This document shows positions 4,103-54,134 of a DNA stretch of 64,000 bases, piece by piece. Numbering within the stretch: position 1 is the stretch's first letter; every line of letters begins with the position of its first letter. The notes beneath the pieces are model-generated. The model did not search any database. It saw only the letters and a program-made list of their open reading frames with translations, and was not told where the DNA came from. Source of the DNA: an uncultured Planctomycetia bacterium (lineage in GTDB: Bacteria; Omnitrophota; Gorgyraeia; Tantalellales; Tantalellaceae); assembly GCA_964527765.1 (NCBI GenBank), contig CAZGQR010000003.1:6156-70155 (forward strand). The letters are read 5' to 3'. A program made the position numbers and the translations under genes.

Positions 4103-5680
4103 TTATTTGGCATATTCGATCGATCTGATCTCCCGTATGACCACGACCTTGATCTGGCCGGGATACTGCAATCCGCTTTCTATTTTTTTCTTTATCTCCT
4201 GGGCCATCACAGCCGCTTTCGCGTCATCGATCCTCTCCGGCTGTACGACAATACGGATCTCGCGGCCGGCCTGGATGGCATAGGTCTTTTCCACTCCCTC
4301 GAACTCATTGGCGATCGCTTCAAGGTTTTCCAGCCTCTTTATGTAATGCTCCAGGGTCTCCCGCCTGGCACCGGGACGGGTCGCGCTTATGGCGTCCGCC
4401 GCCTGGGCGAGGACCGCAAGGAGCGTCTTCGGCTCGACATCCCCGTGGTGCGCCTCGATGGCATGGACGACAATATCGGGTTCACCGTATTTCTTGGCCA
4501 GTTCCGCTCCCAGCGCTGCGTGAGTACCCTCCATCTCATGAGAAACCGCCTTGCCGATATCATGGAGCGCCCCGATACGTTTTGCCAGGTTTATATCCAG
4601 CCTCAATTCTCCGGCCATCGCGGCCATCAGGTAAGCCGTTTCCTTGGAATGCTGCAGGACGTTCTGGCCGTAGCTGGTGCGGAATTTAAGCCGGCCGAGA
4701 AGCTTCACCAGTTCCGAATGCACGCCGTGAATGCCCAGATCCAGAAGCGTATTCTCCCCTTCTTCTTTTATGGTCGCTTCCATTTCTTTCTTCACTTTTG
4801 CCACGACCTCTTCTATGCGGCCGGGGTGGATCCTGCCGTCCTCTATCAGCCGCTCCAGCGAGATCCTGGCTATTTCCCTGCGGAACTTATCGAATCCCGA
4901 GATTATCACGGCCTCGGGTGTATCGTCTATGATGATATCCACTCCGGTGGCCATCTCCAGAGCGCGTATATTCCTTCCTTCCCTTCCTATTATCCTGCCT
5001 TTCATTTCCTCAGAAGGCAAGTTCACCACGCTTACCGTCGTATCTACCGTATGATCCACGGCGCACTTCTGGATGGCCAGCCCTACGATCTTTCTCGCCT
5101 CCCTGTCGGCCTTATCCCTGGTCTCGTCCTGGATCTTCTTTATGGTCTTGGCCGCTTCCTGGCGGGCTTCTTCCTCCATTTTCCTGATCAGGAGATCCTT
5201 GGCCTGCTCCTTGCTCATGCCGGATATCTCCTGAAGCCGGCTCTTTTCCTCCTGGAGCTTGCGGTCCAGCTCCTCTTTCCGGCGATTGGCCTCATCATAT
5301 TTGCGGCGCAGCTCGTCCTCGTTTCTCCTGAGTTCCTTCTCTTTCTGTTCAATAAATTCGACTTTCTTGTCGACGTTCTCTTCCTTCTGCAAAAGATGCT
5401 TTTCCTTGGCCAGTAGTTCCCTCCGGCGTTCCTTCGCCTCCTCTTCGAACTCGGCCCTCATCTTCAAGGAGAGGTCTTTTGCTTCAAGTATGGATTCTCT
5501 TTTCCGGCGTTCGGCCTCTATTTTCGAATTGTTTACTATGGTCTTCGCTTTATCCTCGGCGCGTTTTACTTTCATCTTGGCAGTATACTTCCTCAGGACA
5601 TACCCGAAGAGGAAGAAAAATATGCCGCCAAGAAACGCGAAACCTAAATATGCTGTTGTAATGTCAGTCCTCATGTGCAT
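4103..5680 (-). CDS. rny: ribonuclease Y
   Basis: N-terminal TM helix, long coiled coil, KH domain ([15 protein letters not shown]) and HD domain (HDIGKA...HH). Confidence 0.9.
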
Positions 5681-5729: not shown

Positions 5730-6308
5730 TCAATCTGTAATGACCCGGGAAACGGGTCTGTCATGAGGGTCCGAGGGCAGGGAATCCGCCGCCTGAAAAT
5801 GAAAAGCCAATCCTATTGCCTTTGCCGAAGATAGATCCTTACTGGCGAGGAACCTGTCATAATACCCTTTTCCTCTGCCCAATCGCATGTTCTTTTTGTC
5901 ATAAGCTATTAGTGGCACCACTACCAGATCTATCTCCCTTAAAGGTATTGTCCCGGCAAGACCTTCTTTCGGCTGGTATATCCCGAAAGGGCCCTTTTCC
6001 AGGTTTTTTATTGCTGTAAGCTCAGAAGCTATTATAGTTTGACTATTCGGCTCGATATAAGGAACCGCTACCCTTTTCCCCTGTTTCAATGCCTCTTCAT
6101 TAAGATAGTAAGTGTCCACTTCTGTGGGCAAAGAAACGTATGTCATGACTGTCCTCGCAGCTCGGAATTCCTCACTGGAAAGAAGCTTTTCCTGTATCTT
6201 CCGGCTCCTTTCTTCCCTCAGTGAGGGACCCTGGCCCCGCAGACGCCTTATTTTCTCCTTTCTAATCTCCTCTTTTCTTTCCCTTATGTGCGCCAATTCT
6301 TGGTTCAT
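5730..6308 (-). CDS. 5-formyltetrahydrofolate cyclo-ligase
   Basis: Motifs VAVPYIE...IDLVVVPLIAYD...RLGRGKGYYDR are present. The track ORF extends to 6410, but the internal Met at 6308 avoids overlapping nifU, so it was used as the start. Confidence 0.75.
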   Translation of the reverse strand: MNQELAHIRERKEEIRKEKIRRLRGQGPSLREERSRKIQEKLLSSEEFRAARTVMTYVSLPTEVDTYYLNEEALKQGKRVAVPYIEPNSQTIIASELTAIKNLEKGPFGIYQPKEGLAGTIPLREIDLVVVPLIAYDKKNMRLGRGKGYYDRFLASKDLSSAKAIGLAFHFQAADSLPSDPHDRPVSRVITD

Positions 6309-41236: not shown

Positions 41237-42529
41237 TTACAATCCTATTTTCTTGAAAATCTTATCGATGTGCCTGAGGTGATGATCGAGCCGGAAACAA
41301 TCCTCGACCTCGCCGCCGGACATGTACTTCTTGACCCTTTCGCTTCCAAGCACGGAGTCCTTGAAGTTCCCGTCCTCCTCGCTCGTTCTAAGGGCAAGGC
41401 CCTGCACGATCTCATACGCTTCCATGCGCGTGGCGCCTTTTTTGATAAGCTCAAGCAACAGCCGCTGCGAATAGATAAGTCCCCCCGTAGCTCCGATATT
41501 GTCCAGCATCTTTTCTTCATTCACGATGAGCGTGGAGATCAGGTTCGTTGTTTTATCCAGCGCGTAATCCAGTAGGATCGTGGAGTCGGGCACGATTATG
41601 CGCTCAACGGACGAATGTGAGATATCCCGTTCGTGCCACAGGGCCACGTTCTCCATGGCGGCGACCGCATTGCCCCTAAGCACCCTGGCCAGGCCCGTTA
41701 TCCGTTCGCAGATGATCGGATTCTTCTTATGCGGCATGCTGGAAGACCCGGTCTGGCGACGGGCGAAAAATTCCTGCACTTCGCCGATCTCCGTTCTCTG
41801 CAGTCCGCGTATCTCGACCGCTATTTTTTCCAGCGTCGCGCCGACGATCGCGATGGCGCTAAGATACTGGGCGTGCCTGTCCCTCTGCAGCACCTGACTG
41901 GATACTCCGGCGGGTTCTAAATGCAGTTTCCGGCATACATATTCCTCAACGGAAGGATCTACGTTGGCAAATGTCCCTACTGAACCGGATATCTTCCCGA
42001 CAGCGATAACATTTCTGGCTTCGCGCAATCTTTTCAGATTGCGTTCCATCTCTTTATAAAAAAGCGCCATCTTGAGGCCGAATGAAGTGGGTTCGGCGTG
42101 CACTCCGTGCGAGCGCCCGACCATGGGAGTATTCTTGAATTTCAGGGCCTTTTCTTTCAGGGCCGCCATGAGCCCTTCCGCGTCCTTTATGAGAATATCC
42201 ATGGCTTCCGCCATCATAACGGAAAGAGCCGTATCCAGGATATCGCTGGAAGTCAGGCCAAAATGAAGATATTTGGCGTCTTCGCCTACGTTTTCGGATA
42301 TATTCCTGATAAAAGCGACTACATCGTGGTGGGTTTCGCTCTCGATCTCTTTGATCCGCCCGACATCAAAATCGGCCTTCTCCCTGATGGTCTTTACCGC
42401 TTCTTTAGGGATCAGGCCCTGCCTGGCAAACGCTTCACAGGCCAATATCTCGATATCAAGCATCTTGCGAAATTTGTTCCCGTCCGCCCATATTCTGGCC
42501 ATTTCCGGACGCGTGTATCGCTCTATCAT
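41237..42529 (-). CDS. purB: adenylosuccinate lyase
   Basis: MIERYTRPEM...; fumarate-lyase signature GSSSMPHKKNP. Confidence 0.9.
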   Translation of the reverse strand: MIERYTRPEMARIWADGNKFRKMLDIEILACEAFARQGLIPKEAVKTIREKADFDVGRIKEIESETHHDVVAFIRNISENVGEDAKYLHFGLTSSDILDTALSVMMAEAMDILIKDAEGLMAALKEKALKFKNTPMVGRSHGVHAEPTSFGLKMALFYKEMERNLKRLREARNVIAVGKISGSVGTFANVDPSVEEYVCRKLHLEPAGVSSQVLQRDRHAQYLSAIAIVGATLEKIAVEIRGLQRTEIGEVQEFFARRQTGSSSMPHKKNPIICERITGLARVLRGNAVAAMENVALWHERDISHSSVERIIVPDSTILLDYALDKTTNLISTLIVNEEKMLDNIGATGGLIYSQRLLLELIKKGATRMEAYEIVQGLALRTSEEDGNFKDSVLGSERVKKYMSGGEVEDCFRLDHHLRHIDKIFKKIGL

Positions 42530-42659
42530 GTTTTTCTCCCCTGTTATCGAGAAAAAACGGACATTGGGTCTCAACCGGAGTATTTTTTATAGCATATATA
42601 ATATCCTCTGTCAATAAGTCAGTTTTTGGGCCTTGCGGCGGCGGCGGATAAAAAACAGC

Positions 42660-42688
42660 TTGCCTCTACATGCCAGATTTGTTATAAT
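42660..42688 (+). promoter_or_regulatory. near-consensus sigma70 promoter TTGCCT-N17-TATAAT driving tRNA-fMet
   Basis: -35 at 42660-42665, -10 at 42683-42688, 29 nt upstream of the tRNA 5' end. Confidence 0.5.
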
Positions 42689-42717
42689 CTCCATTCATTG
42701 TGAGTTTAATTCTATCG

Positions 42718-42792
42718 CGCGGGGTGGAGCAGAGGTAGCTCGTGAGGCTCATAACCTCAAGGTCGGCGGTTCGATTCCGCCCCCCGCAACCA
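42718..42792 (+). tRNA. initiator tRNA-Met (anticodon CAU), CCA encoded
   Basis: CGCGGGG...CCCCGCA acceptor with a C1:A72 mismatch and the CTCATAA anticodon loop. Near-identical in architecture to E. coli tRNA-fMet. Confidence 0.85.
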
Positions 42793-42805
42793 ACTTCACC
42801 AACCT

Positions 42806-43018
42806 CAGGGACGTTTCTCATTTTGTTCCTAGACCGTAAATTATTTTACTCCCAGACCTGTCCCTAAATTTGTTCTCAGACCTGTCCCTCTACTTATTCT
42901 CTAAATTATTGGGGACAGGTCTGAGATTGGCCTTGGGGACGGGTCTGAGATTGAATCTGGGGACAAATCTAGGTTTAGGATTTTGTGCGGTCTAGGTTTG
43001 ATTTGAAAAACGTCCCTG
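42806..43018. repeat. 213-bp element, bounded by inverted repeats, containing a complex repeat array
   Basis: 11-bp perfect IR CAGGGACGTTT/AAACGTCCCTG at the ends. Inside are two or three direct copies of yCAGACCTGTCCCT and three or four inverted copies GGGGACrGGTCTGAGATTG. The element fills exactly the gap between the tRNA-fMet 3' end and the giant-ORF stop. Confidence 0.6.
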
Positions 43019-43019
43019 A

Positions 43020-46000
43020 TTATGCTGCGGTGCGGATTTTTGTTTCCTGGGTTCTATATCTTTCACGCAGTTCTTCGAATTCGACAGGTATCGCTTTTGG
43101 AAGGATGAAAATGTAGATGTCGGGGAATCTTTCGTCTTTCTTTACTGTTATGCCAAAGTCCCCGCTGTCTATACCCGGATCAAAGGCAAGCTCAAAAGCC
43201 AGCGTCAGCATTTCCATGATATAACTGTAAGTATTTTCGGTCAAATTCCTATTGTCCACCCCCGCCAGGAAAATGTCCTTATCTTTTCTCAGGGCCTCGA
43301 ATTCCCCGGAGGTAACGGTATTTTCATGGGATAACACTATGACTTTCGCGTCTTCATTACCCTTCTTGGCTTTTTCGGTCTTTACGGCTGTCAGCAGGTC
43401 TTTATCTTCCCTGTCTATAAAAATTATGTTCTGCGACTTGCAGAAACCCCTTAAGGCCATTATCAGGCGGTTCAGGACCTGGTGCTGGAGAGATCCTTTC
43501 TTTTCATATCCTCTTATCCAATCCGTCCCGAGAGCAAAAATAACTTTCTCACCCGGTTTTTTCCTTTCAAATGCCCGGACAATAGCGGTATCAATAAAAT
43601 CCTGAGCGATCTTTGCATCCCTGTCAATAGCGTGCTCCTTTTCCCTGTCCTCGGCTTTGGCCCGCTCGGAACTGGGCGGCATAATGGATCGCCACTCCTT
43701 CAGTTGCCTGAACCCTTTAACATCATTTTTAAACCCTTTATAGCCGTACATTATGGTGAACAGCGCATCCGGCCGCGTATATCCTTCTTTGCGCGGCAGG
43801 ACCGCGGCAATCACCGCCTTATTCTTCACGACATGGAAGTTCTCGACCAAATCGCGCGCCTTTGCCTTTTCCTCTTTGAAAAACTCTTCCGGGAGAATAA
43901 ACCCTTCCTCTGCGATACGCCTGAGATATGTCTCGTACCCGCCCCCTCTCAGGGAAACCAGATAAAGAAATATGCCGTATTTCTCTATAATCTTCTCCGG
44001 GATGCCTTTTTTCTCCAGCTCTTCCCTGAACCCATCAAAACCGACAGCCGGACTGAACGTGCTTATATAAGGAACGTCATCAAAATGTGCTTTTGCTTTA
44101 TCTATAAACATCTGACCAAGGTTTATATTCCGGGTGGCATCGTCTTTTGAGGATCCTATCGCCCAGAAAAGAAGCGTATCAAAAGGACCTTTACCGGATT
44201 TTCCGCTGAACATGTTATCCCATAAAGGATATTCTTCGATTTTTGCAAGTTCGCCTCCCGTATTAAGCGGATAAGTAAGAAGAACGCCCCTGACCGGCTT
44301 TTCGATCCCCTTGATCTTCAATAGATAGACCATTTTTTGCCGTATAAGGTGCCGCATTTGCTCTTTTGTCAGTTGTAAAAATTTGCTCCTCACCCAGGAC
44401 TCGTTATGGACGGAAAGAGCCTCGTCCAGTTCGGCTGCACCGGCCTGCGTGATCTCCGTTACTTCCCAGTTTATTATGTTGCATAGTGATCTGCCTAATC
44501 GCCCTTCGTACAATTTCGATTCATCCGGCGAGGCAATTGTCCGGAAAAGATATTCGTCAACCAGTTCCGGCGGCCCGTGATTCTGCAACCAGGCGATCAC
44601 ATCGGTGGCAAGAAAGAGTTCCCCGGCTTCCGCATCGTTCCGGTACAGGATAAAATCATCGGGTGATTCCATTATGGACTTAAAGCCGTATATCTTATAT
44701 TCCTTCAGCTTCTCCAGCTGATCCTGCAATCGGCTTCTGTCTTCATGGGATAATTCTTCTCCTTTCAGGGCATCTTTAAACAAGCTGATTATTTTATCCT
44801 TATATTGCCCGGTAATATCGTTCTGTCTCGTTTCCGAAAGCTGAGACCTGAATTTCCCGCGGGCCCCTGCGGTTTCGTCGTCCGCGCGGAGGTTATCTTC
44901 CTCGGGCTGCGGAAGGGGAAGATTCGGCACGGTCACCGGACCTTCGAAGGGAACCATCCCGTTTGGCCCGTATTTGATCACAAAATCATTGGGCTCAATG
45001 CCGAATTCGCGCAGTTTCGAGACAAGCCCCAGTTCCTTCATCAGGTCAAACGTGGCTTTCTGATTTCTGGAAAACCGGAATATCAACGTCAGGGTATCTT
45101 CCAGCCTTTCCTTCATATAAGGATCTTCTTCCCATTGATAAGTTTCGGCGCATTCCTTTATCAGCTTTTTGGTCTGCGGCGTAAGTTCAAGATCAAATAG
45201 ATCGATAAATTGGACAGCCCGTAAAAATTGCGGCATGTGCAGGTTCTCCGGCGCTATTTTTTCTTTCTCGCCTGTCTTTTTGCCTACCAGGCGCGCCGCT
45301 TTCCTCTTGAAATCCGCTATCCCCCCGTGTATATCTATGAGTTCTATCTCATCCCCTACTATCTTGAATCCGATCCTGTTCATGGACAGATCCGCCATCG
45401 GATCCGGCTCTATGTTGCCTTCTTCGTCAAGCACGCCCAGAACATCTATCGGAAAACCCCGGAAATTAAGGAACGCTTTTTCGAAGAGCCTGTAGGGAAT
45501 ATCCTCCACTTCTATCCTGTTACCTGCCTTGCTCAGCGCAAATGCAAGGTCGGACATGGTATCCCACGTGTTTACGCCCGTCTTTTCCTGTATGGCCTCT
45601 TTTTCAATAACAATGTCAAAATCCGACGGCGTCTTGTTAAGCAATAAGCTCCTTACCGCGCCGCCATAGATGATAATGCGGCTCAGGTCATTTCTCCTGA
45701 GGAACTGTAAAAATGTCTTAACTATTCCTTCCGGAAGCTCGTCGATCCTGAACCTGCTGCCATGGCCTAGATCTTTTCTTTCCATCAAAGGCAGTTTCCT
45801 GGGCCTGGTAAGAAATTCTTCCCTCTGAAGTTCTATCTCTTCATCCAGCGTTGCCGCGAATTCCCAGGCCTTGTCGGGCTCGAAAATGAACCATTCAAGA
45901 AAGTCCGGCGAATGCGTTGTCTGCATCCCGATGATCTTGAAGAAGGCCCTTCTCGCCTGGGGACGGATGAACACCCTGCCTTCCCCGCCTTCCCTCAAGC

Positions 46001-49000
46001 TTATGTTGATCAGGCTTTCGACCATCCGTCTGCCGACGCCCCTTAACTTTCTTCCTTCCTTTTCCCTTTCCGTATTATGGCGGGCGACCTCCAGGATCTT
46101 GATGCAAACACCGGGGCCCAGACCATACCTTCCTTCCCTGTCCATCTCATAGACGCATAATGCCTCCAGTATCCCTTTCGCGGTATAGGCCTTCAGGACT
46201 TTGTATTTTTCGTCAACGTTCTTCCATTGATCGTCTTTTTTCATGAACTGCGTGAACCATCGGAACATCTTGGTGTATTCGCCCTGTATGAGCTGATGCA
46301 CCTCATCGGAATCCGCCGGCTCTATCCAGATCTTTATCCTGTCCCCGCTTTTGGCCCCCATGACGAAAGTGGATACTGCGCCTTCCTCTCTTTCCTGCGC
46401 TTTCTCCTTTTCTTCCGGCTGATGAGAAATGGGCGTTTCGAACTGTTGGGAAGGAAACATGGTAACGGATATTTTTGTCTCGTTCGGGTCCGATTCGAAG
46501 AGGTCGGCATGGTTCCCGGCCGGGTCATGATAATACCTTACGCCTTTGCCCCTGCTGGCGCCTTCCACCGTAATGTCATCGATCCGCCCGAGGCGCCTGA
46601 GGCCCGACAGAAAAACACCTCTCACCGATTCAAGGGTGCTCTCCGGGGACACATATTTTCTTCTTACCCGTGGTTTTTCAAACGCATCGGGCACCGGTAT
46701 GCCCCTGCCGCGGTCCACGGCCATGATACGCACGCCCACCGTGCCGTCCGCCCTTTTGACCTTTTCGATCCTGAAATAGAAATCAGCTTCGGGCTGCGCG
46801 AGTGAAACGAACTCCTGCATGTTCTTGACCAGCTCACCGAACAGAAATTCCGCCAGTTGCGCGCGGTTGCGGAAATCCTGCGGAACGACCGGCGCAACGC
46901 CCGGGTCAAAGCCGATGGGTTCCCTGGCATCCCCGGGGCTTAAGGCCTTGAACATCTCCATTGCCTTGCGGTTTTTGGCATCAACGGTCGGGCGGCGCAA
47001 AGGCGATTCCGCTTCTTCCTTGGTTACGACGACTGAATCCAGAACCGAAAGATCTTCGGGCGGCTGTGCGTGACGGGAAACTATATATTTTTTCTCGAAT
47101 TCGCCCTGGTCAAGTCCGGATCGACCGGAGAGACGCTCCTCTATTATATCCCTCAAAGCCTTTCCCAATAATCCCTTGTACGGGGTGAATTTAAGCTGCT
47201 CCTGAAGTTTTCTTTTATCGGGATAATTGTCGGGAAAAAGGTCCTGCTGGACTAAAATGGCGTTGTAATGGCCCAGGAAGGGGCAGAGAAGTTCGTGCAG
47301 CAGATATTCGTCGACAATGGCCGGAGAACCGCGGTTTTCCAGTTCGGTAATAACATCAGTGGCAAAGAACAGTTCTTCTCCTTCATCATTCCGCCCCAGG
47401 AAAAAATCGTCCGGTCCGTTTACAATAGACTCAAAGCCGTATATCCTGGTCTTCCCTTTCCGCAGTCCCTCCAGCAGGCCCTTCAGGGATATTCTCTCGT
47501 ACTGCGGTATCTCAAGCTGCGGCAGGTCGATCATGCCCGATAACCGTACTATCCTGTCCCTGTATTCGTCCGTAATATCGTTCTTTTTGATATCATCAAG
47601 CCGTGACAGGAATTCTTTCAGCGGATACACGCCCTGCCATATAAAACCGTCGGGCCCCGCATTGCCGGGCATTATTGCCGAAAATGCTTTCTTCAATCTC
47701 GTGTTTTTGGCAATTCTATCTATGATATTCTTGCAGACCCCAAGGACCGAAGATTCGCTCATGCCATACCTGTCCATCAACTCCCTGGTTGTGTCATCAT
47801 CAAAATACTTTTCCTTGAAGATCTGTATATCCCTTTCCTTGTGCCTGGTATCCGGAAGGACCTCCTTCAGAAGGTCCAGAAGCTCCTTTATTTCTTCATC
47901 GGTCAGCGCCGTGAGCCGACCTCTGCGGAAAATATGATCGGCATCTTCCTTAATGGGACCGGTCAGACTTACTTCTCTATTCCTTTTGAGGCGCCTGTAA
48001 TGATCCATTAAGGCATTTTGGAAAGCCGCCTGAAAATACGGCACGAATATCTCGTGCTTGTGATCTCCGAACGCCAGCACCGTCTTCATGAGAACATCGT
48101 TCAGAAGGTCGGACAGGCCGTGATCCCCGATATCATCCTTATGATTATTCATTACGCCCTGCACGGCATGTTTGCATACGGCATGAAGAGCGACGAAACT
48201 GGCCTTGTTGCCCGTTTCCGCATCCAGGGCCAAGGCGACTATATCGGCGTTGGTTAAGCTGCCAAAATGCCGTTTGACAAATTTTTCAAGGCCGTGGGGC
48301 AGATCTTCGTATCCCCTGTACCTGTGCAACAGCTCCTTCGTCTTTGACCAGCTGTCCTCTGTAAACCTGAGCTCCTTTCTTCTTAAGGGCAGGAGGTTCC
48401 TTATCCCCAGATGTTTCTTGATTATTCTGAGAGCCCTGTGAAAAGAACCTCTGCCGGAAAGCCCGTTCATTCTCACGTAAAACGTTAGAAGGCCGGACAG
48501 TGATTTGCCGCCGAACGCCTCAAGCTGTTTGGCAAGATCGACCGTATCCACTTCCCCGGATTTTTTACCCGCCTCCCGCGCAAGTATTTCCACAAGATGA
48601 CGGCGGGCCTCCTTCATTACCCTGGGCCACCTGATCTTCTTTTTCCTGAATTCTTCCAGCACGGTGTCGGGGCCTATAATTATGCCGCCTTTTTCAAGCT
48701 TTTCTCTGGCGGCTTTTGTCTCGGCGCTGGCGGGTTTTGCGCCAAGATCCTTAAGGATGGATGTTACGATCTCCAATTCAACAGGTTTCAAGACCATCGC
48801 CCGGTATACCGCGCCCCTGCCGCTCCCTTTTCTTTCCACAAGGCCGAGACGGTCCAGCACCCCCAGGTCGCGTTTTATTGTATGTTCCATCGACAGGCCG
48901 CTCTTTCCGGCGATATCCTGAGCCGAAATAAATCTGTTTTCCGCCCTGAGGATCTCGAACGTGTTGTAGGGCGAGCCTTCGGAGGTCGGCGGCACTGCGC

Positions 49001-52000
49001 CGGGCTCCGGGCGCTTTTTGCCGATCATGATGCCGTCCACTTCCTTTATAAGCTCGGTCAGAAGTCTATCGCCGGCGTTTTCCTTCTCGGATAGTTCCTT
49101 GTACTTTTTTAAGGCCCTTACCAGCTTATTGATTTTTCTCGTCGGTTTTCTTCTCTTTTTGTCGGGCAGTTTGCGGAACGTCGATTTTATGCTCTCCAGC
49201 AGAGTGACACACAGGGCATATACATCGTCCCTGGGCAGGCAAAGTTCTCTTGTCGGGGTATCTTCGGCTTTGACCCTGTTGATCCTGTCCCCGCTCATGT
49301 AATACCCTTTGGTGAACCATTTCCGGATCTTGTTTATCCTTCCCCCCTTGTCCAGCGGGGTCACGGTGTCATTATCGACATACACCACTCTTTTTAACGC
49401 TCCGTTATCTTCCACGGCCATGATCGCGGTGGGGTCGATATCGCCGTGAACATACCCGTTATTCAAGTAGGTCTGCCTGTATCCTTTCAGGGTCTTTTCC
49501 GCCAGGTCAAGAAAGGCCGATTCTACGGCACGAAGGGGCCTCAGGCGCAGCGCCCTGGCATGATCTTCCAGGGTCCTGCCGTCAATGAATTCAAAAAGAG
49601 GCACTTTCTTGCTTGAAAACCCGTCCATGCCGTCCGTGGGGACCAGGCCGATGAACTTGGGCAGGCAGGGGTTTGTATTCGCGGGGTTTATGAAGGAAAG
49701 GATCTCGACCTGAGGCAGCAGGAAGATCTCCAAATTGCCGTGCCGATGGCCATACAATGTCGAATCTTTCGTAATATAATAATTGCCCTTTTTGAGCTCT
49801 ATCGCGTTGGTGAGGATCTTATCTTCCCCGACATATTCGTATTTCCGCAACACGGAATTGCCCGTTTTAATAAGCCCGGTAAATTTAAAATCTCTTTCAA
49901 AATTCCTTATGCGGGGGACCCTGCTGACCGCTTTCCGGACCGCCTGAACATCCTTTTCGGGGGGTGCGGCGCTAAGCGTGATAATGGAAAATAAACGTCG
50001 GCGGAGCCTTTCCTTTGCTGCTCGTTTTTCCCCGGCGGAAGGCCGCGGGCCGAGCTTTTTAAGGACGGGTTCCGCGATCTCCCATCCTGCCGGGCTCAGT
50101 TCCATCGCCCTGAATATGGCGTAATCGCCTTCACCGTCCTTTTCGACCAGACCGAGAAAAACGAGTGTCCCCAGGTCGCGTTTTACCACTTCAAGCGAAA
50201 GATGCCCGTCTGGCATCCCTCCTTTCGTTTCCAGCCGGATCTGCTCGGCAAAGGCAAAGCCTTCTTTTGCCCGCAGGATCTCGAACATGCTGCATGGAGA
50301 GCCTTCGGCAGGCGGATCTTCACGCTGCAAACCATCTCCCCTGCCCGATCTCGCCTTCTCCTTGGAAATTATATAGGCCCTTGAATTGCTGACCAGGCCG
50401 AATGAGTCTGCGGAAACCGCCAGTCCCGTTTTTTCGCTCAGCAGTTCCTCCACATACTTCAAGTAGCTGTTGACCAGAACCGCTTTGCCGCCATCGGTCA
50501 TATGTTCAGCTATATTTGCGGCGACCCGCTTCAGGACCGCTTCGCCAAAGTCCTTTACGTTCCTGTCATCGGGCGTTATCAGCCCGGTACCCAGGTCCAC
50601 ACTGCTCCCGTGCGGCATGGTTATATGCGGCATGTTGAATATGATAAGGTCATACTGACCCAGCCCGTCGAACAGGTCATTGCGAAAGGCGTTTACCCTG
50701 CTCCCGGCGCCTCCCAAAGAACAGGTGAGCTTCGTGTTCTCCACCGCCATCTCTTTTATGTCCACCGCGTCTACAAAAGCCCCTTTCTCGGCGGCTATGC
50801 GGGCCTCAAGCCCGCTGCCCGTCCCGATGACCAGCACCTTCATCCCGGGTTTGGCGTATTTTAAGGCGGCTTTCGCGCTTACTTCGCTTGAGGGGTTGAC
50901 GCCGGTATAAACACCCGGCAGAACAGGAATGCTTAAAACCGTCATACCCGGCGGGTATGCTTTGCCGTCGGTGGGCGGGGCGGACTTTATCTCGATCAAT
51001 TCTCCGGAATTATCGAACATGGCATACGCGTAAGCGGACTTAAGAACCCGGGGCCAGAAATCGGGGAACAATTTCTTCTTTCTTTTTTTCGCGGATTCCG
51101 CTTTCCTCTTGTCGCTGTCCCCGTAATAAACGGACAGGTCTATGACCACGGGGTCCTTGCCTGTTCTTTGCAGGCTTAAAAACAGAGGTTTATCGTTATG
51201 GTTCACTATCGACAGGGCCCCTTCCAGCTCATCCTTCTCCAAGACCCTGAATGCCGTCCTGATCGCGTAACTGTTGAGTTTTTCCAGCGGCACCTCGGCA
51301 ATGTCGAACCCTTTTTCCCTTCGCCACTCCAGTTTCGCGGGAACAATACCCAATGCCCTGAAGATCCTGCTCGCGACTTCAGAAAATTCCGCGGGCGGCT
51401 GGATCAGGTGAAATTCCAGCGTTATCATCGTGCCGGCAGTGATATCGCTCGTGCCGCTCTGGGCGAACCAGAGCCCGGCATTCTCGTCCGTGCTGATCCC
51501 GGTCCACTTCTCGCCATACGCTTTTCTGCCTTTCGACTCGATCACGACATGATCCGGATCGAACGCTATCCTTTTGAAGCCGAAGCCCCTGAGCGCGCCT
51601 TCCGCGGCTTTGATGCTGTCCCTGACCAGTTCGTTCGGATCACGCGTCAGGCCTTCTCCGTTATCCACGGCAACGATCTTCAGGCCGGTGATCGCGCCGG
51701 ACTTGTCCCTTCCGGCGTACACCCGGATGACACCTCCCCTGCCGTGTTCCATGATATTGCGCGCCAGCTCGTTGAGAACGTCGTCTATGCTGACTCTTTT
51801 ACCTTCCGGAACTTCTTCGATGCTCTTGATGAATTTTCTTATTTCGCCGGACACAAAATCCTCATGGGCTTCGGTAATAATGCCCGGCATCTCAAGCTCA
51901 AACACGGGTCCGGCCGGGTCGGGGGCCTTGCGTTTTATCCCCGCCCATTTCCTTGCCACGACCTTGGTGCCCCCGTGCTCCATTTCCGCGTCCCTGGCCT

Positions 52001-54134
52001 TTTTCGTCTTGAACCATTGCCGCCCCCGGGACAAGATCTCCACATAGTCCATATCCCTGACCAGCCTGGTCAGGGCCATTCCCGCGCTTCCCCCTGTTTT
52101 ATCCAGGGAAACCCCCTCTTTCACCGCCAGGGCGATATCCCTTATCCCTTTTCCGTTATCCAGGGCGACTACCTCTACACCTCTGCCTTTTTTCTCGCTG
52201 TATATCCCGCGTGCCAGGAGCACCCCGAATCCGGTTACCACATGCTGTTCCACGTTTTCCGCCAGGCCCACAAGAGACCTGATCACCTTGGAAGCTTTTA
52301 TGTCGCTCAGGCCTAAATTTTTTACCAGACCGGGGATATTTGTCTTTTCCACAATCGCTACCGCTTCTGACGGCTTCATGCTCAACAGTTTCTCGATCTT
52401 TCTCCTGCCCCGCCTGCCGACAAAAAGAGCCCACCTGAACCCGTAAAAACTTTCAAGAACGCACAAACTTTCCTTGAGAGCTTCTTCGTTCATATCACAC
52501 AACGCCTGCCAGGCCCTGCCTATCAGGTCCTCAGTCGGTATGATTTCTTCCGGCGCGGTCGCGGCATCCCTCGCGGCGAAGGGCTTCTGCCTTATCCTCA
52601 GGTCCCAGCCATAACCGCTGCTGTTCCCCGCCAGGAACGCCGGCACCATCAGCGTAAGCAGGATCCGGTGCTTGATATCCTCGATCTCGGGGTCCTTGAT
52701 CTCCTTAAGAGAGATCGGAAAGTCAGGGCCTTTGTCAAAATAGGCCATGTCCTCCGGGACACACACGTAATCGTCCGTAATAAGGTACCCGCCCGGTCTC
52801 ATTTGTTCGTAGATGCGGCATATGAAACTGCCCCATCCTTTTTCATAGTCCTTGGCGGTTTCATTGGCGGCTCTCTGATAATAAATATCGATCCTTTCCC
52901 CTTCGAGCATTTCTTCATATTGGCGGGGCCTGGTGATATCGGCATTTATGAACGTTATCGAATAGGTCTGTTCCTTTGCGCCCCTGTACTGCCAGTCAAA
53001 CGTTATGCGGGGATGGCCTTGATCCGAATCGACCTTCACCGTCGAAAGATCCACCCCTATCGCTTTCAGCTCAAAAGCGATCGCCGCGGTGATCTTTCTC
53101 CTGTTCTGAAGCGTCCCGCCGTTGGCGAAACCCCACTTGAATTTTTCGCAGTAAAGATCGGCGTTGAAATATTTTCTCAGGTATTCTTCGGGACCATCGT
53201 CCTTAAAGCACTTCTTGAGTTCCGATTCCGAAAGCTGATAGAAAATGCCGCTATAATCCGAGATGAAATATCCCCTGGTCGCGTTGGTCGAAAGAAGAAA
53301 GTTCGAGATGTCGGCGCCGGCGGCGCCGTAAACCGCCGTCAGGGGCCTGTTGTCCGGGTTCACGAATCTCTTTATCGCCATGCCGTGCTCGACATGCATT
53401 CTCTGGAGAAGGCCCGCATTGATCGGGCGATAGTCGATCTGTTTCTTCCCATCAAGGGGTGAAGTTTTTTCCGTCTCCGGAAGCGAGGCTTCTTCCGCCC
53501 GCGGGAACGGGGTTTTCCCCCGGTCTTTTTGTCCGGCTGAGATACCTTTTTCCGGCACGATCCGGGAAGATATGGCGCCCCACCCTTCACACATGATCTT
53601 TGCATCCCCGATCTCGATGGGTATTGCGGCTCCGCCGCGAGATTCAAGCGGTTCATCTCCCGGCAAGTAATAGCGGAGGGTCACCGTTTCGGGGCTTCCT
53701 TCTCTCTTGTAGGGCAGGCAAAAAGTGTTTCCTTCTTTATGCAATTCCTGCCATTTAAAGCTTTCGAAATCTATATGCGAGATGTGCTTCTTAAGAAGTT
53801 TTTCCCTGAGGCCATCCGCGCTTATCATGCTTCCGGACTGGGCCAGCACCTGCCCTATTAAAATGCTGAGATAAATGAACCCGGCATCCTCCTGGAAATC
53901 TTCTTTGGCTCTCGATCCCGCCGCTTCATTTTCATTAACAATGACCTGGCCGCTCTCGCGCACTTTCACGCTGATGATGGGGCTGAGTCTCGAAGGAGGA
54001 GAAAGGGTGTGGACGCTTTCCCGCGCCGCGCCGGGCTCGAGCGCGTAGGAAATGTTGCTGAAAACGAACAGGCATATTATGCCCGCCGATACGGCCTTGA
54101 ACCACAACTTGTGCGTATTGAAATATCTTTCCAT
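43020..54134 (-). CDS. giant multidomain protein (3704 aa), function unknown
   Basis: A single uninterrupted 11.1-kb ORF. The N-terminus is a signal peptide or signal anchor. Motif-level evidence supports GHKL kinase, SAM methyltransferase, wHTH, kinase-like, ECF sigma, class II nucleotidyltransferase and duplicated modules; see findings. Confidence 0.85.
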   Translation of the reverse strand: MERYFNTHKLWFKAVSAGIICLFVFSNISYALEPGAARESVHTLSPPSRLSPIISVKVRESGQVIVNENEAAGSRAKEDFQEDAGFIYLSILIGQVLAQSGSMISADGLREKLLKKHISHIDFESFKWQELHKEGNTFCLPYKREGSPETVTLRYYLPGDEPLESRGGAAIPIEIGDAKIMCEGWGAISSRIVPEKGISAGQKDRGKTPFPRAEEASLPETEKTSPLDGKKQIDYRPINAGLLQRMHVEHGMAIKRFVNPDNRPLTAVYGAAGADISNFLLSTNATRGYFISDYSGIFYQLSESELKKCFKDDGPEEYLRKYFNADLYCEKFKWGFANGGTLQNRRKITAAIAFELKAIGVDLSTVKVDSDQGHPRITFDWQYRGAKEQTYSITFINADITRPRQYEEMLEGERIDIYYQRAANETAKDYEKGWGSFICRIYEQMRPGGYLITDDYVCVPEDMAYFDKGPDFPISLKEIKDPEIEDIKHRILLTLMVPAFLAGNSSGYGWDLRIRQKPFAARDAATAPEEIIPTEDLIGRAWQALCDMNEEALKESLCVLESFYGFRWALFVGRRGRRKIEKLLSMKPSEAVAIVEKTNIPGLVKNLGLSDIKASKVIRSLVGLAENVEQHVVTGFGVLLARGIYSEKKGRGVEVVALDNGKGIRDIALAVKEGVSLDKTGGSAGMALTRLVRDMDYVEILSRGRQWFKTKKARDAEMEHGGTKVVARKWAGIKRKAPDPAGPVFELEMPGIITEAHEDFVSGEIRKFIKSIEEVPEGKRVSIDDVLNELARNIMEHGRGGVIRVYAGRDKSGAITGLKIVAVDNGEGLTRDPNELVRDSIKAAEGALRGFGFKRIAFDPDHVVIESKGRKAYGEKWTGISTDENAGLWFAQSGTSDITAGTMITLEFHLIQPPAEFSEVASRIFRALGIVPAKLEWRREKGFDIAEVPLEKLNSYAIRTAFRVLEKDELEGALSIVNHNDKPLFLSLQRTGKDPVVIDLSVYYGDSDKRKAESAKKRKKKLFPDFWPRVLKSAYAYAMFDNSGELIEIKSAPPTDGKAYPPGMTVLSIPVLPGVYTGVNPSSEVSAKAALKYAKPGMKVLVIGTGSGLEARIAAEKGAFVDAVDIKEMAVENTKLTCSLGGAGSRVNAFRNDLFDGLGQYDLIIFNMPHITMPHGSSVDLGTGLITPDDRNVKDFGEAVLKRVAANIAEHMTDGGKAVLVNSYLKYVEELLSEKTGLAVSADSFGLVSNSRAYIISKEKARSGRGDGLQREDPPAEGSPCSMFEILRAKEGFAFAEQIRLETKGGMPDGHLSLEVVKRDLGTLVFLGLVEKDGEGDYAIFRAMELSPAGWEIAEPVLKKLGPRPSAGEKRAAKERLRRRLFSIITLSAAPPEKDVQAVRKAVSRVPRIRNFERDFKFTGLIKTGNSVLRKYEYVGEDKILTNAIELKKGNYYITKDSTLYGHRHGNLEIFLLPQVEILSFINPANTNPCLPKFIGLVPTDGMDGFSSKKVPLFEFIDGRTLEDHARALRLRPLRAVESAFLDLAEKTLKGYRQTYLNNGYVHGDIDPTAIMAVEDNGALKRVVYVDNDTVTPLDKGGRINKIRKWFTKGYYMSGDRINRVKAEDTPTRELCLPRDDVYALCVTLLESIKSTFRKLPDKKRRKPTRKINKLVRALKKYKELSEKENAGDRLLTELIKEVDGIMIGKKRPEPGAVPPTSEGSPYNTFEILRAENRFISAQDIAGKSGLSMEHTIKRDLGVLDRLGLVERKGSGRGAVYRAMVLKPVELEIVTSILKDLGAKPASAETKAAREKLEKGGIIIGPDTVLEEFRKKKIRWPRVMKEARRHLVEILAREAGKKSGEVDTVDLAKQLEAFGGKSLSGLLTFYVRMNGLSGRGSFHRALRIIKKHLGIRNLLPLRRKELRFTEDSWSKTKELLHRYRGYEDLPHGLEKFVKRHFGSLTNADIVALALDAETGNKASFVALHAVCKHAVQGVMNNHKDDIGDHGLSDLLNDVLMKTVLAFGDHKHEIFVPYFQAAFQNALMDHYRRLKRNREVSLTGPIKEDADHIFRRGRLTALTDEEIKELLDLLKEVLPDTRHKERDIQIFKEKYFDDDTTRELMDRYGMSESSVLGVCKNIIDRIAKNTRLKKAFSAIMPGNAGPDGFIWQGVYPLKEFLSRLDDIKKNDITDEYRDRIVRLSGMIDLPQLEIPQYERISLKGLLEGLRKGKTRIYGFESIVNGPDDFFLGRNDEGEELFFATDVITELENRGSPAIVDEYLLHELLCPFLGHYNAILVQQDLFPDNYPDKRKLQEQLKFTPYKGLLGKALRDIIEERLSGRSGLDQGEFEKKYIVSRHAQPPEDLSVLDSVVVTKEEAESPLRRPTVDAKNRKAMEMFKALSPGDAREPIGFDPGVAPVVPQDFRNRAQLAEFLFGELVKNMQEFVSLAQPEADFYFRIEKVKRADGTVGVRIMAVDRGRGIPVPDAFEKPRVRRKYVSPESTLESVRGVFLSGLRRLGRIDDITVEGASRGKGVRYYHDPAGNHADLFESDPNETKISVTMFPSQQFETPISHQPEEKEKAQEREEGAVSTFVMGAKSGDRIKIWIEPADSDEVHQLIQGEYTKMFRWFTQFMKKDDQWKNVDEKYKVLKAYTAKGILEALCVYEMDREGRYGLGPGVCIKILEVARHNTEREKEGRKLRGVGRRMVESLINISLREGGEGRVFIRPQARRAFFKIIGMQTTHSPDFLEWFIFEPDKAWEFAATLDEEIELQREEFLTRPRKLPLMERKDLGHGSRFRIDELPEGIVKTFLQFLRRNDLSRIIIYGGAVRSLLLNKTPSDFDIVIEKEAIQEKTGVNTWDTMSDLAFALSKAGNRIEVEDIPYRLFEKAFLNFRGFPIDVLGVLDEEGNIEPDPMADLSMNRIGFKIVGDEIELIDIHGGIADFKRKAARLVGKKTGEKEKIAPENLHMPQFLRAVQFIDLFDLELTPQTKKLIKECAETYQWEEDPYMKERLEDTLTLIFRFSRNQKATFDLMKELGLVSKLREFGIEPNDFVIKYGPNGMVPFEGPVTVPNLPLPQPEEDNLRADDETAGARGKFRSQLSETRQNDITGQYKDKIISLFKDALKGEELSHEDRSRLQDQLEKLKEYKIYGFKSIMESPDDFILYRNDAEAGELFLATDVIAWLQNHGPPELVDEYLFRTIASPDESKLYEGRLGRSLCNIINWEVTEITQAGAAELDEALSVHNESWVRSKFLQLTKEQMRHLIRQKMVYLLKIKGIEKPVRGVLLTYPLNTGGELAKIEEYPLWDNMFSGKSGKGPFDTLLFWAIGSSKDDATRNINLGQMFIDKAKAHFDDVPYISTFSPAVGFDGFREELEKKGIPEKIIEKYGIFLYLVSLRGGGYETYLRRIAEEGFILPEEFFKEEKAKARDLVENFHVVKNKAVIAAVLPRKEGYTRPDALFTIMYGYKGFKNDVKGFRQLKEWRSIMPPSSERAKAEDREKEHAIDRDAKIAQDFIDTAIVRAFERKKPGEKVIFALGTDWIRGYEKKGSLQHQVLNRLIMALRGFCKSQNIIFIDREDKDLLTAVKTEKAKKGNEDAKVIVLSHENTVTSGEFEALRKDKDIFLAGVDNRNLTENTYSYIMEMLTLAFELAFDPGIDSGDFGITVKKDERFPDIYIFILPKAIPVEFEELRERYRTQETKIRTAA

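Follow-up and report, generated by a model that had tools for sequence, protein, structure and literature searches.

We analysed a 64,000-nt stretch of DNA from an uncultured bacterium (contig CAZGQR010000003.1; the window hereafter means this whole stretch) and focused on a repeat element located between a tRNA-fMet gene and a giant open reading frame (ORF). The element, at 42805-43019, is very probably a non-autonomous, gene-less copy, made of two ends, of a mobile element of the RAYT/TIRYT type, a RAYT being a transposase of the REP (repetitive extragenic palindrome)-associated tyrosine class and a TIRYT a RAYT-like enzyme whose gene is flanked by terminal inverted repeats. It belongs to a repeat family dispersed in Omnitrophota and Planctomycetia, and the full-length members of this family enclose a Y1 transposase gene.

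The element formed an imperfect hairpin of 215 nt with perfect 12-bp inverted termini, TCAGGGACGTTT (42805-42816) and AAACGTCCCTGA (43008-43019). The first-pass annotation had described perfect 11-bp terminal inverted repeats, and these were indeed present, as CAGGGACGTTT at 42806-42816 and the complementary AAACGTCCCTG at 43008-43018, with one further base pair outside them. The hairpin arms, 84 nt long and 71% complementary, were assembled from units spaced by 24 nt with the core GGGGAC(A/G)GGTCTG. All features are given on the + strand, except for the loop, to which no strand was assigned. In the left arm, the terminus TCAGGGACGTTT carried the family-wide form AGGGACG, which bounds 12 two-ended elements elsewhere. 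It was followed by a terminus-proximal variant unit, CCTAGACCGTAAA (42828-42840), a subfamily signature that appears as CCAGACCGTAAAA in both copies of contig L076 (retrieved loci and contigs are given as L numbers), and by two 24-nt units (42851-42889) with the core CAGACCTGTCCCT at 42853-42865 and 42877-42889. The two or three direct copies noticed earlier therefore correspond to exactly two copies of CAGACCTGTCCCT plus the variant third unit CCTAGACCGTAAA. The central hairpin loop of 21 nt (42890-42910) lay at the position of the transposase gene in the full-length members L049, L030 and L082. The right arm contained two 24-nt units (42911-42953), GGGGACAGGTCTGAGATTG at 42911-42929 and GGGGACGGGTCTGAGATTG at 42935-42953, then an extra degenerate unit, GGGGACAAATCTAGG (42959-42973), which folded into a side hairpin, and a terminus-proximal variant unit, TGCGGTCTAGG (42986-42996); of the three or four inverted copies claimed before, two were thus good units and the remaining two were degenerate. 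The right terminus carried the family-wide CGTCCCT and agreed with the ...AAACGTCCCT consensus of 39 family ends, and an nhmmer profile of the family ends matched 42989-43017.

We folded the element as RNA on both strands, as the first-pass annotation had proposed. The results showed very stable folding, with a minimum free energy of -111.4 kcal/mol on the + strand (shuffles, -62; z = -10.2) and -104.4 kcal/mol on the - strand (shuffles, -52; z = -12.8), and none of 200 shuffles folded as stably as the element. The 19-mer unit occurred twice against 0.01 occurrences expected. The 11-mer terminal pair by itself was within chance, at least two matches being found in 19 of 100 shuffles. These results confirm that the element as a whole is a real structure, beyond chance. 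Single 24-nt units folded at 0 to -1 kcal/mol (z about 0) and were not palindromic, so the hairpin arises only from the pairing of the two arms or, weakly and in the AGAACCGTCCCT subfamily, from pairing between terminus and last unit (-7.2 kcal/mol, z = -2). No Rfam family matched the element, and the search of 42400-43400 returned the tRNA together with sub-threshold matches to plant and animal microRNA precursors, which are explained by the element being a long hairpin. A search of a phage database matched nothing beyond the tRNA.

We scanned one genome per species (185,579 species) for two tandem cores with the pattern GGGACNGGTCTG-N10-14-GGGACNGGTCTG, for which we estimated far fewer than one match by chance. 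Of the 69 loci retrieved, about 22 came from metagenome-assembled genomes (MAGs) of Omnitrophota and three from those of Planctomycetia, with up to six to eight loci per MAG (nzgw316 and Zod_Metabat.83), as solo ends and as two-ended dimers. The element was single in the 64-kb window, including by nhmmer profile search, yet its family was dispersed in these other genomes. The ends from Omnitrophota and Planctomycetia consisted of two to four units spaced by 23-24 nt, followed by (G/A)AAACGTCCCT or AGAACCGTCCCT. Alignment of 39 ends at the terminus gave the consensus GGGACAGGTCTGnGATTAAnTTnnnAAACGTCCCT, in which the core and the terminus were near-invariant and the spacers varied. All 12 two-ended copies had the termini AGGGACG...CGTCCCT, with inverted termini of 10-12 bp. 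No direct duplication was found at the junctions of these 12 copies, and a mild preference for A was seen after CCCT. Transposition by HUH/Y1 enzymes without target-site duplication is established for IS200/IS605 and assumed for RAYTs. The lack of a target-site duplication therefore argues against a MITE (a miniature transposable element with inverted repeats) of the DDE type and is consistent with HUH/Y1 transposition. No tandem-core array was found in viral contigs.

In L030, L049, L056 and the L017/L020 contig, inverted family ends enclosed a single gene of 159-161 aa. The encoded protein matched Y1_Tnp in Pfam (E = 5e-15 to 5e-18). It scored 75 bits with the NCBIfam model REP_Tyr_transpos (REP-associated tyrosine transposase), below the cut-off of 80, and 32 bits with transpos_IS200 against a cut-off of 55. 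The only PDB match was E. coli TnpA-REP (4ER8, E = 2e-4), with which the HuH and tyrosine motifs aligned. Because these first loci had been found via the repeat, we also performed a test from the protein side, in which five homologues of the L049 protein were fetched by protein sequence alone, together with their flanks. Four of the five (L081, L082, L083 and L088) showed the layout AGGGACG..., units, gene, units, ...CGTCCCT, and the flanks of L086 were decayed. In all, eight of nine transposase loci, namely these four and the four above, were flanked by family termini and units.

The full-length elements measured 674-934 bp. Their left half comprised the terminus AGGGACG(T/G)TT and one to four tandem 24-nt units (core CAGACCTGTCCCC) ahead of the gene, and their right half, after the gene, one to four inverted units (GGGGACAGGTCTG) and the terminus AA(A/C)CGTCCCT. 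The homologues of the L049 protein were mostly of 156-175 aa, the named ones came from Omnitrophota, and the motifs HuH ([ND]HVH), WQ and YIE[YF]NPV were invariant across the clade. The repeat-flanked proteins (159-166 aa) ended soon after the tyrosine motif and had no second Pfam domain. A longer relative, P0235 (229 aa, 43% identical), carried exactly NHVH / WE / YIELNP. The contigs with transposase homologues were mostly 0.6-1.5 kb long, a size that breaks at the flanking repeats would produce, and repeats of this family probably do fragment metagenome assemblies.

Gene-less copies with two ends, like the element in the window, were found in L021 (253 bp, Planctomycetia), L050 (145 bp), L082 at 5938-6211 (274 bp, between convergent genes) and L076 at 1427-1614 (188 bp). 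Long hairpins were obtained for all four copies that were folded (window, L076, L021 and L050; z = -8.6 to -11.8). Among the fetched loci of nzgw316 and Zod_Metabat.83, gene-less arrays numbered seven or eight, compared with a single transposase locus. A metagenome scan with a subfamily-specific pattern returned at least one contig, L076; its counts are lower bounds, because JGI contigs known to hold the window locus were not returned. L076 is a 63-kb contig whose JGI sample, a lake-sediment metagenome, is shared with one of the window's own contigs. Its copy at 1427-1614 shared with the window element the left terminus CAGGGACGTTTCTCA and the subfamily variant unit CCAGACCGTAAA, and the two were about 86% identical in their central 96 nt. 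The window's subfamily had a third copy, with a truncated right arm, which was located at L076 14-150, 1.3 kb from the second, and the L076 copies sit between divergent genes.

We compared the locus with four relatives that retain the order giant gene, tRNA-fMet, purB, and in which purB is 77-83% identical to that of the window. No family units were found in the intergenic region of L077, L078 or L080, while in L079, from the same MAG as L043 and L056, a copy of that MAG's own subfamily separated the tRNA promoter from the giant gene. Since three of the four relatives lack the element at the orthologous site, a comparison that had been suggested earlier for the tRNA-fMet locus, the element is an insertion, and the same intergenic region has been struck in at least two lineages. 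The C-terminus of the giant protein (..KIRTAA*) is conserved in the relatives, and the insertion therefore did not truncate the giant ORF. No transposase pseudogene was detected in the 640-nt intergenic region of L079. As a separate observation, a solitary terminus-like sequence, AAATGGGGACGGTTG, was present at L079 5093-5120, 11 nt past the stop codon of the giant gene, and about 450 nt of non-coding DNA lay between it and the element copy of that MAG.

In the window, the tRNA-fMet gene and its promoter (TTGCCT-17-TATAAT) occupy 42660-42792 on the + strand, the promoter lying at 42660-42688. ARAGORN called tRNA-Met(CAT) at 42718-42792, with an encoded CCA. The acceptor stem reads CGCGGGG...CCCCGCA and has a C1:A72 mismatch, which is a mark of bacterial initiator tRNA. 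The giant ORF (3704 aa) lies on the - strand at 43020-54134. The placement given by the first-pass annotation held on both sides: the CCA end (42792) is 13 nt ahead of 42806, and the stop codon of the giant ORF begins one base beyond 43018. With its full termini, the element leaves 12 nt of the gap on the tRNA side and none on the other. Beyond the gap, the neighbours are purB, purM and purD in one direction and the giant ORF in the other. The host is a Candidatus Omnitrophota bacterium, and the nearest named purB homologues (80% identity) belong to MAGs of this group. The locus, with a 100% identical element, was present in five assemblies (ENA ERZ27256778 and ERZ27256773; JGI 3300017989, 3300017991 and 3300018080). 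A Logan contig (SRR6963311) was 100% identical to the window but stopped within the tRNA gene, short of the element.

The segment 42676-42793, with promoter and tRNA, was inverted in the window relative to all four syntenic relatives, the positions to compare being L077 4128-4260, L078 5722-5796, L079 5733-5807 and L080 5761-5835. The giant gene, the tRNA and purB are codirectional in these relatives, whereas the tRNA of the window is convergent with the giant gene. A hairpin with a T-run, forming a terminator, directly follows the 3' end of the tRNA in the relatives. No canonical terminator-like site was found in the window at 42400-43400, and no T-run abutted the hairpin of the element on either side. 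At the inversion breakpoint away from the element, GGCCTTGCGG (42629-42638) showed a similarity of 10 nt to GGCCTTGGGG (42929-42938), and a second element remnant at that breakpoint was rejected, this similarity being too weak to count. The element-bearing junction of the inversion is in itself a small example of a repeat at a rearrangement breakpoint.

A mechanism by which the element could have arrived can be proposed by analogy with E. coli TnpA-REP and with REPINs, which are REP doublets. In single-stranded DNA, the two arms would pair into a hairpin of roughly 100 bp, and this pairing would juxtapose both termini at the hairpin foot. Acting in trans, a Y1 transposase encoded at another place in the genome would bind the GGGGACAG-type units and would cleave and rejoin the DNA at the CCCT termini, so that the element would move without a target-site duplication. 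One copy would have come to lie next to the giant gene's stop codon on one side and the inverted tRNA-fMet cassette's 3' end on the other, where its hairpin may now double as the sole barrier or terminator between two convergent transcripts.

It is possible, although we hold it to be doubtful, that this last role is the main one, the element being an exapted, structured bidirectional terminator or insulator whose mobile origin is incidental. The position fits such a role, as the element fills the whole tRNA-to-stop gap, relatives have a hairpin and T-run after the tRNA, the tRNA cassette is inverted in the window, and the element sits where a terminator would be needed in a region that has no other terminator-like site. 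Its stability as RNA on either strand (-104 to -111 kcal/mol) and its identity in five assemblies also point in this direction, and REP and bacterial interspersed mosaic element (BIME) sequences have been proposed to take part in termination and to stabilise mRNA (PMC3733652). However, the hairpin is not followed by a U-tract on either strand and is therefore not an intrinsic terminator, and other copies lie between divergent genes (L076) or flank a transposase, so that the role does not define the family. A hairpin of this kind could plausibly block 3' exonucleases or impede polymerase, as hypothesised for REP/BIME. The terminator role is compatible with the mobile-element explanation rather than an alternative to it.

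Among the four explanations raised by the first-pass annotation, its description of the element as MITE-like came closest: the element is short, non-coding and bounded by inverted repeats, belongs to a dispersed family and is absent from the orthologous site of three relatives. In the classical sense of a deletion derivative of a DDE-type insertion sequence, moved by cut-and-paste with target-site duplication, we consider a MITE very unlikely: none of the 12 two-ended copies showed such a duplication, and the only gene found between the ends was that of a Y1 HUH transposase of the RAYT type, no DDE transposase being associated with the family. The location just past the CCA end had also suggested a tRNA 3' end used as an integration site, with the units as arm-type sites, and in the relative L077, 16 nt of the tRNA 3' end are indeed repeated close by. 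That the element is a remnant attachment site or arm-type array of an integrative element targeting tRNA-fMet is nevertheless highly improbable. Neither purB nor the giant gene side carries an integrase, and the tRNA 3' end is unduplicated in the window, where the sole tRNA-related repeat is a 13-nt, 85% match to the anticodon-arm region, at chance level for a short two-copy family. Moreover, a tRNA adjoins the element only in the window, L079 and L081 among about 33 element-bearing loci (window counted), and the L079 element is on the side of the tRNA where its promoter lies; adjacency to a tRNA does not characterise the family. An operator or iteron array serving a local regulator of the tRNA, purB or the giant gene would account for the conserved 13-nt core, the regular 24-nt spacing and the two inverted blocks, but we give this proposal almost no credence. 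The same units and termini recur at dozens of loci, unrelated to one another and spread over many genomes, which speaks against arm-type sites as well; the element is missing in three relatives that keep the same genes, and it lies downstream of both flanking genes rather than at a promoter.

Several observations weigh against our reading of the element as a non-autonomous copy of the RAYT/TIRYT type. The reachable host sequence, that is, the 64-kb window, held no second copy of the element (L070-L075 lie inside the window coordinates and add no sequence), and tblastn found no Y1 transposase gene in the window or in L070-L076. The L076 contig may come from a sister Omnitrophota population and not from the host: its GT87 protein was recorded in JGI samples only, whereas the window purB was recorded in NCBI, JGI, ENA and Logan, and its tetranucleotide similarity (r = 0.88) falls in a range that overlaps with that of relatives known to be different (0.86-0.96). 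As L076 possibly represents another population, multi-copy status in the host genome is at most tentative. No insertion polymorphism was seen at the locus among the five identical assemblies, and a clean empty-site junction is not reconstructable because the tRNA cassette is inverted in the window. As for the mechanism, we know of no TIRYT-type enzyme that has been studied biochemically, and it is for this reason built on analogy with E. coli TnpA-REP; the units of the family are also non-palindromic, unlike the REP substrates of that characterised enzyme.

Further observations on the family concern its copies elsewhere. In L076, a gene for a GT87/DUF2029 glycosyltransferase lies between the two copies at 14-150 and 1427-1614, an arrangement also seen in L089 (8342-8470 and 9754-9942). 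The longest ORF of this interval (L076 101-1414, minus strand) takes its final 13 codons from element sequence, and a paralogous GT87 gene is located just past the second L076 copy. In four Zod_Metabat.83 copies (L044 1-179, L046 120-310, L048 5176-5360 and L062 7070-7256), sequence conservation continues inward from the right end, past the units, for more than 130 nt, which suggests a longer non-autonomous element with cargo or structure of its own. In L081 (3486-3620), a tRNA-Tyr on the opposite strand has its 3' end about 10 nt from the right terminus of an element that bears a transposase, a second case of a family element lying against the 3' end of a tRNA.

MAGs of other phyla also contained the 12-13-nt core GGGGAC(A/G)GGTCTG at many loci, in hairpin arrays, tandem and inverted, whose spacers differed. 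Such arrays were present in Lachnospiraceae RGIG5021 (L007, L010, L031, L035, L036 and L055) and Actinomycetota GS_HAYS_MAG_00061 (L029, L038, L041, L052, L057, L059, L063 and L065), both of which carry GGGGACRGGTCTG arrays, and in L047 (Bacillota) and L028 (Opitutaceae). No Y1 gene was seen within the 8-kb array loci of other phyla. Y1-like genes in L019 and L067, two loci from other phyla, were considered as array-flanked candidates and rejected; their flanking was unconvincing, and a cross-phylum link to Y1 is unproven.

Other observations concern the neighbourhood of the tRNA in relatives. The giant gene, at L077 3-4106, L078 1-5647, L079 1-5092 and L080 1-5656, varies widely in length and Pfam content at its conserved position. 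One version is 3704 aa long and has only a weak PolyA_pol head match; SecA-like repeats occur in a version of 4930 aa, Pkinase in one of 2897 aa, and methyltransferase and pentapeptide domains in one of 2501 aa. The C-termini read ...I(K/R)(T/S)AA* or similar. In L077, the repeated 16 nt of the tRNA-fMet 3' end (TGGTTGCGGGGGGAGG) are found some 130 nt downstream of this gene and resemble the scar of an integrated element, and a tandem pair near the purB promoter (GGGGACATACCTGAA / GGGGACACACCTCAA) is likewise GGGGWSAS-like; these two features span about 4390-4470 and about 4520-4555.

The conspicuous repeat of the window is thus explained without a new system, as selfish DNA of the RAYT/TIRYT type, and this type is extended to uncultured Omnitrophota and Planctomycetia. 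With a length of about 700 bp, clear termini and repeated putative binding units, the system offers a compact model for DNA recognition by Y1 enzymes associated with terminal inverted repeats. A more far-reaching proposal, which we regard as rather unlikely, is that the short proteins (about 160 aa, with no C-terminal domain) form a distinct Y1 lineage recognising tandem non-palindromic 24-nt units with the 13-nt core instead of a hairpin of the REP or IS200 type, with co-option of the copy in the window as terminator of the inverted initiator-tRNA cassette; if true, it would mean multi-site, sequence-specific and cross-phylum end recognition, which would be new for Y1 enzymes. In the literature searched, no paper linking Omnitrophota or Planctomycetia to such repeats was found, and the core sequence returned unrelated primer sequences only, none in a bacterial context.

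We compared the family with known systems of Y1 transposases and their repeats. IS200/IS605 elements share with it a HUH transposase of the Y1_Tnp family and the lack of target-site duplication. They differ in having no terminal inverted repeats, their subterminal hairpins being recognised on one strand, and in the tyrosine motif, which is Y---Q in IS200/IS605 as opposed to Y---NP (PMC6006769), the family having YIE.NP. The E. coli REP/BIME system with TnpA-REP (4ER8, PMC3479197) provides the sole solved structure matched by the family protein, and its repeats are likewise intergenic, often between convergent genes, with hypothesised effects on termination and mRNA stability. However, the protein match is weak (E = 2e-4), and the family DNA is unrelated and without a recognition unit of GTAG plus hairpin.

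REPIN-RAYT systems (PMC3116915, PMC5581495), whose way of working the family would share, are similar in that their non-autonomous form is a doublet whose two inverted halves pair as a long hairpin, a Y1 transposase gene, usually present once, is bordered by the same sequences and outnumbered by the gene-less copies, and the copies are extragenic. In contrast to REPINs, the halves in our family are not REP palindromes and have no GT[AG]G tag at the hairpin foot. Each half is instead a multi-unit array closing in a defined terminus, and the transposase falls slightly under the REP_Tyr_transpos cut-off (75 vs 80 bits).

The closest resemblance was to the systems that Di Nocera et al. (2013, PMC3733652) named TIRtrons, in which RAYT-like genes, whose enzymes are called TIRYTs, are flanked by terminal inverted repeats and not by GTAG-tagged REPs. 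According to the same paper, as restated in PMC6006769, many TIRtron repeats share GGGGWSAS, and their copies are single, dimeric or clustered. Most TIRYTs correspond to TnpA-Y1 subclass 2.1, which equals Bertels group 1 and is marked by NHVH / W[EQ] / YIELNP, by proteins with a median of 238 aa and by a helix-turn-helix (HTH)-like domain at the C-terminus; DNA recognition by these enzymes is described as unknown (Quentin et al. 2018, PMC6006769). The 16-mers flanking group 1 RAYTs are moderately repeated, with about 12 per replicon (Bertels et al. 2017, PMC5581495). Compared by published motif and description, and not unit by unit, our family agrees with TIRtrons in several respects: a RAYT-like HUH/Y1 gene lies between terminal inverted repeats at eight of nine loci, there are no GTAG-tagged REP hairpins, the core GGGGACAG fits GGGGWSAS, with the variant GGGGACGG off by one position, and the repeats, moderately abundant, are scattered as single, dimeric and clustered copies. 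It differs in its ends, which consist of one to four tandem 24-nt units plus a separate terminus of 7-12 nt. The proteins also depart from subclass 2.1 in their length of 156-175 aa, in having no C-terminal HTH-like domain, and in part in their motifs, [ND]HVH / WQ / YIE[YF]NP against NHVH / W[EQ] / YIELNP. The hosts are Omnitrophota and Planctomycetia MAGs, outside those surveys, and the element is a previously undescribed member, from a new host group, of the class of selfish DNA described in 2013.

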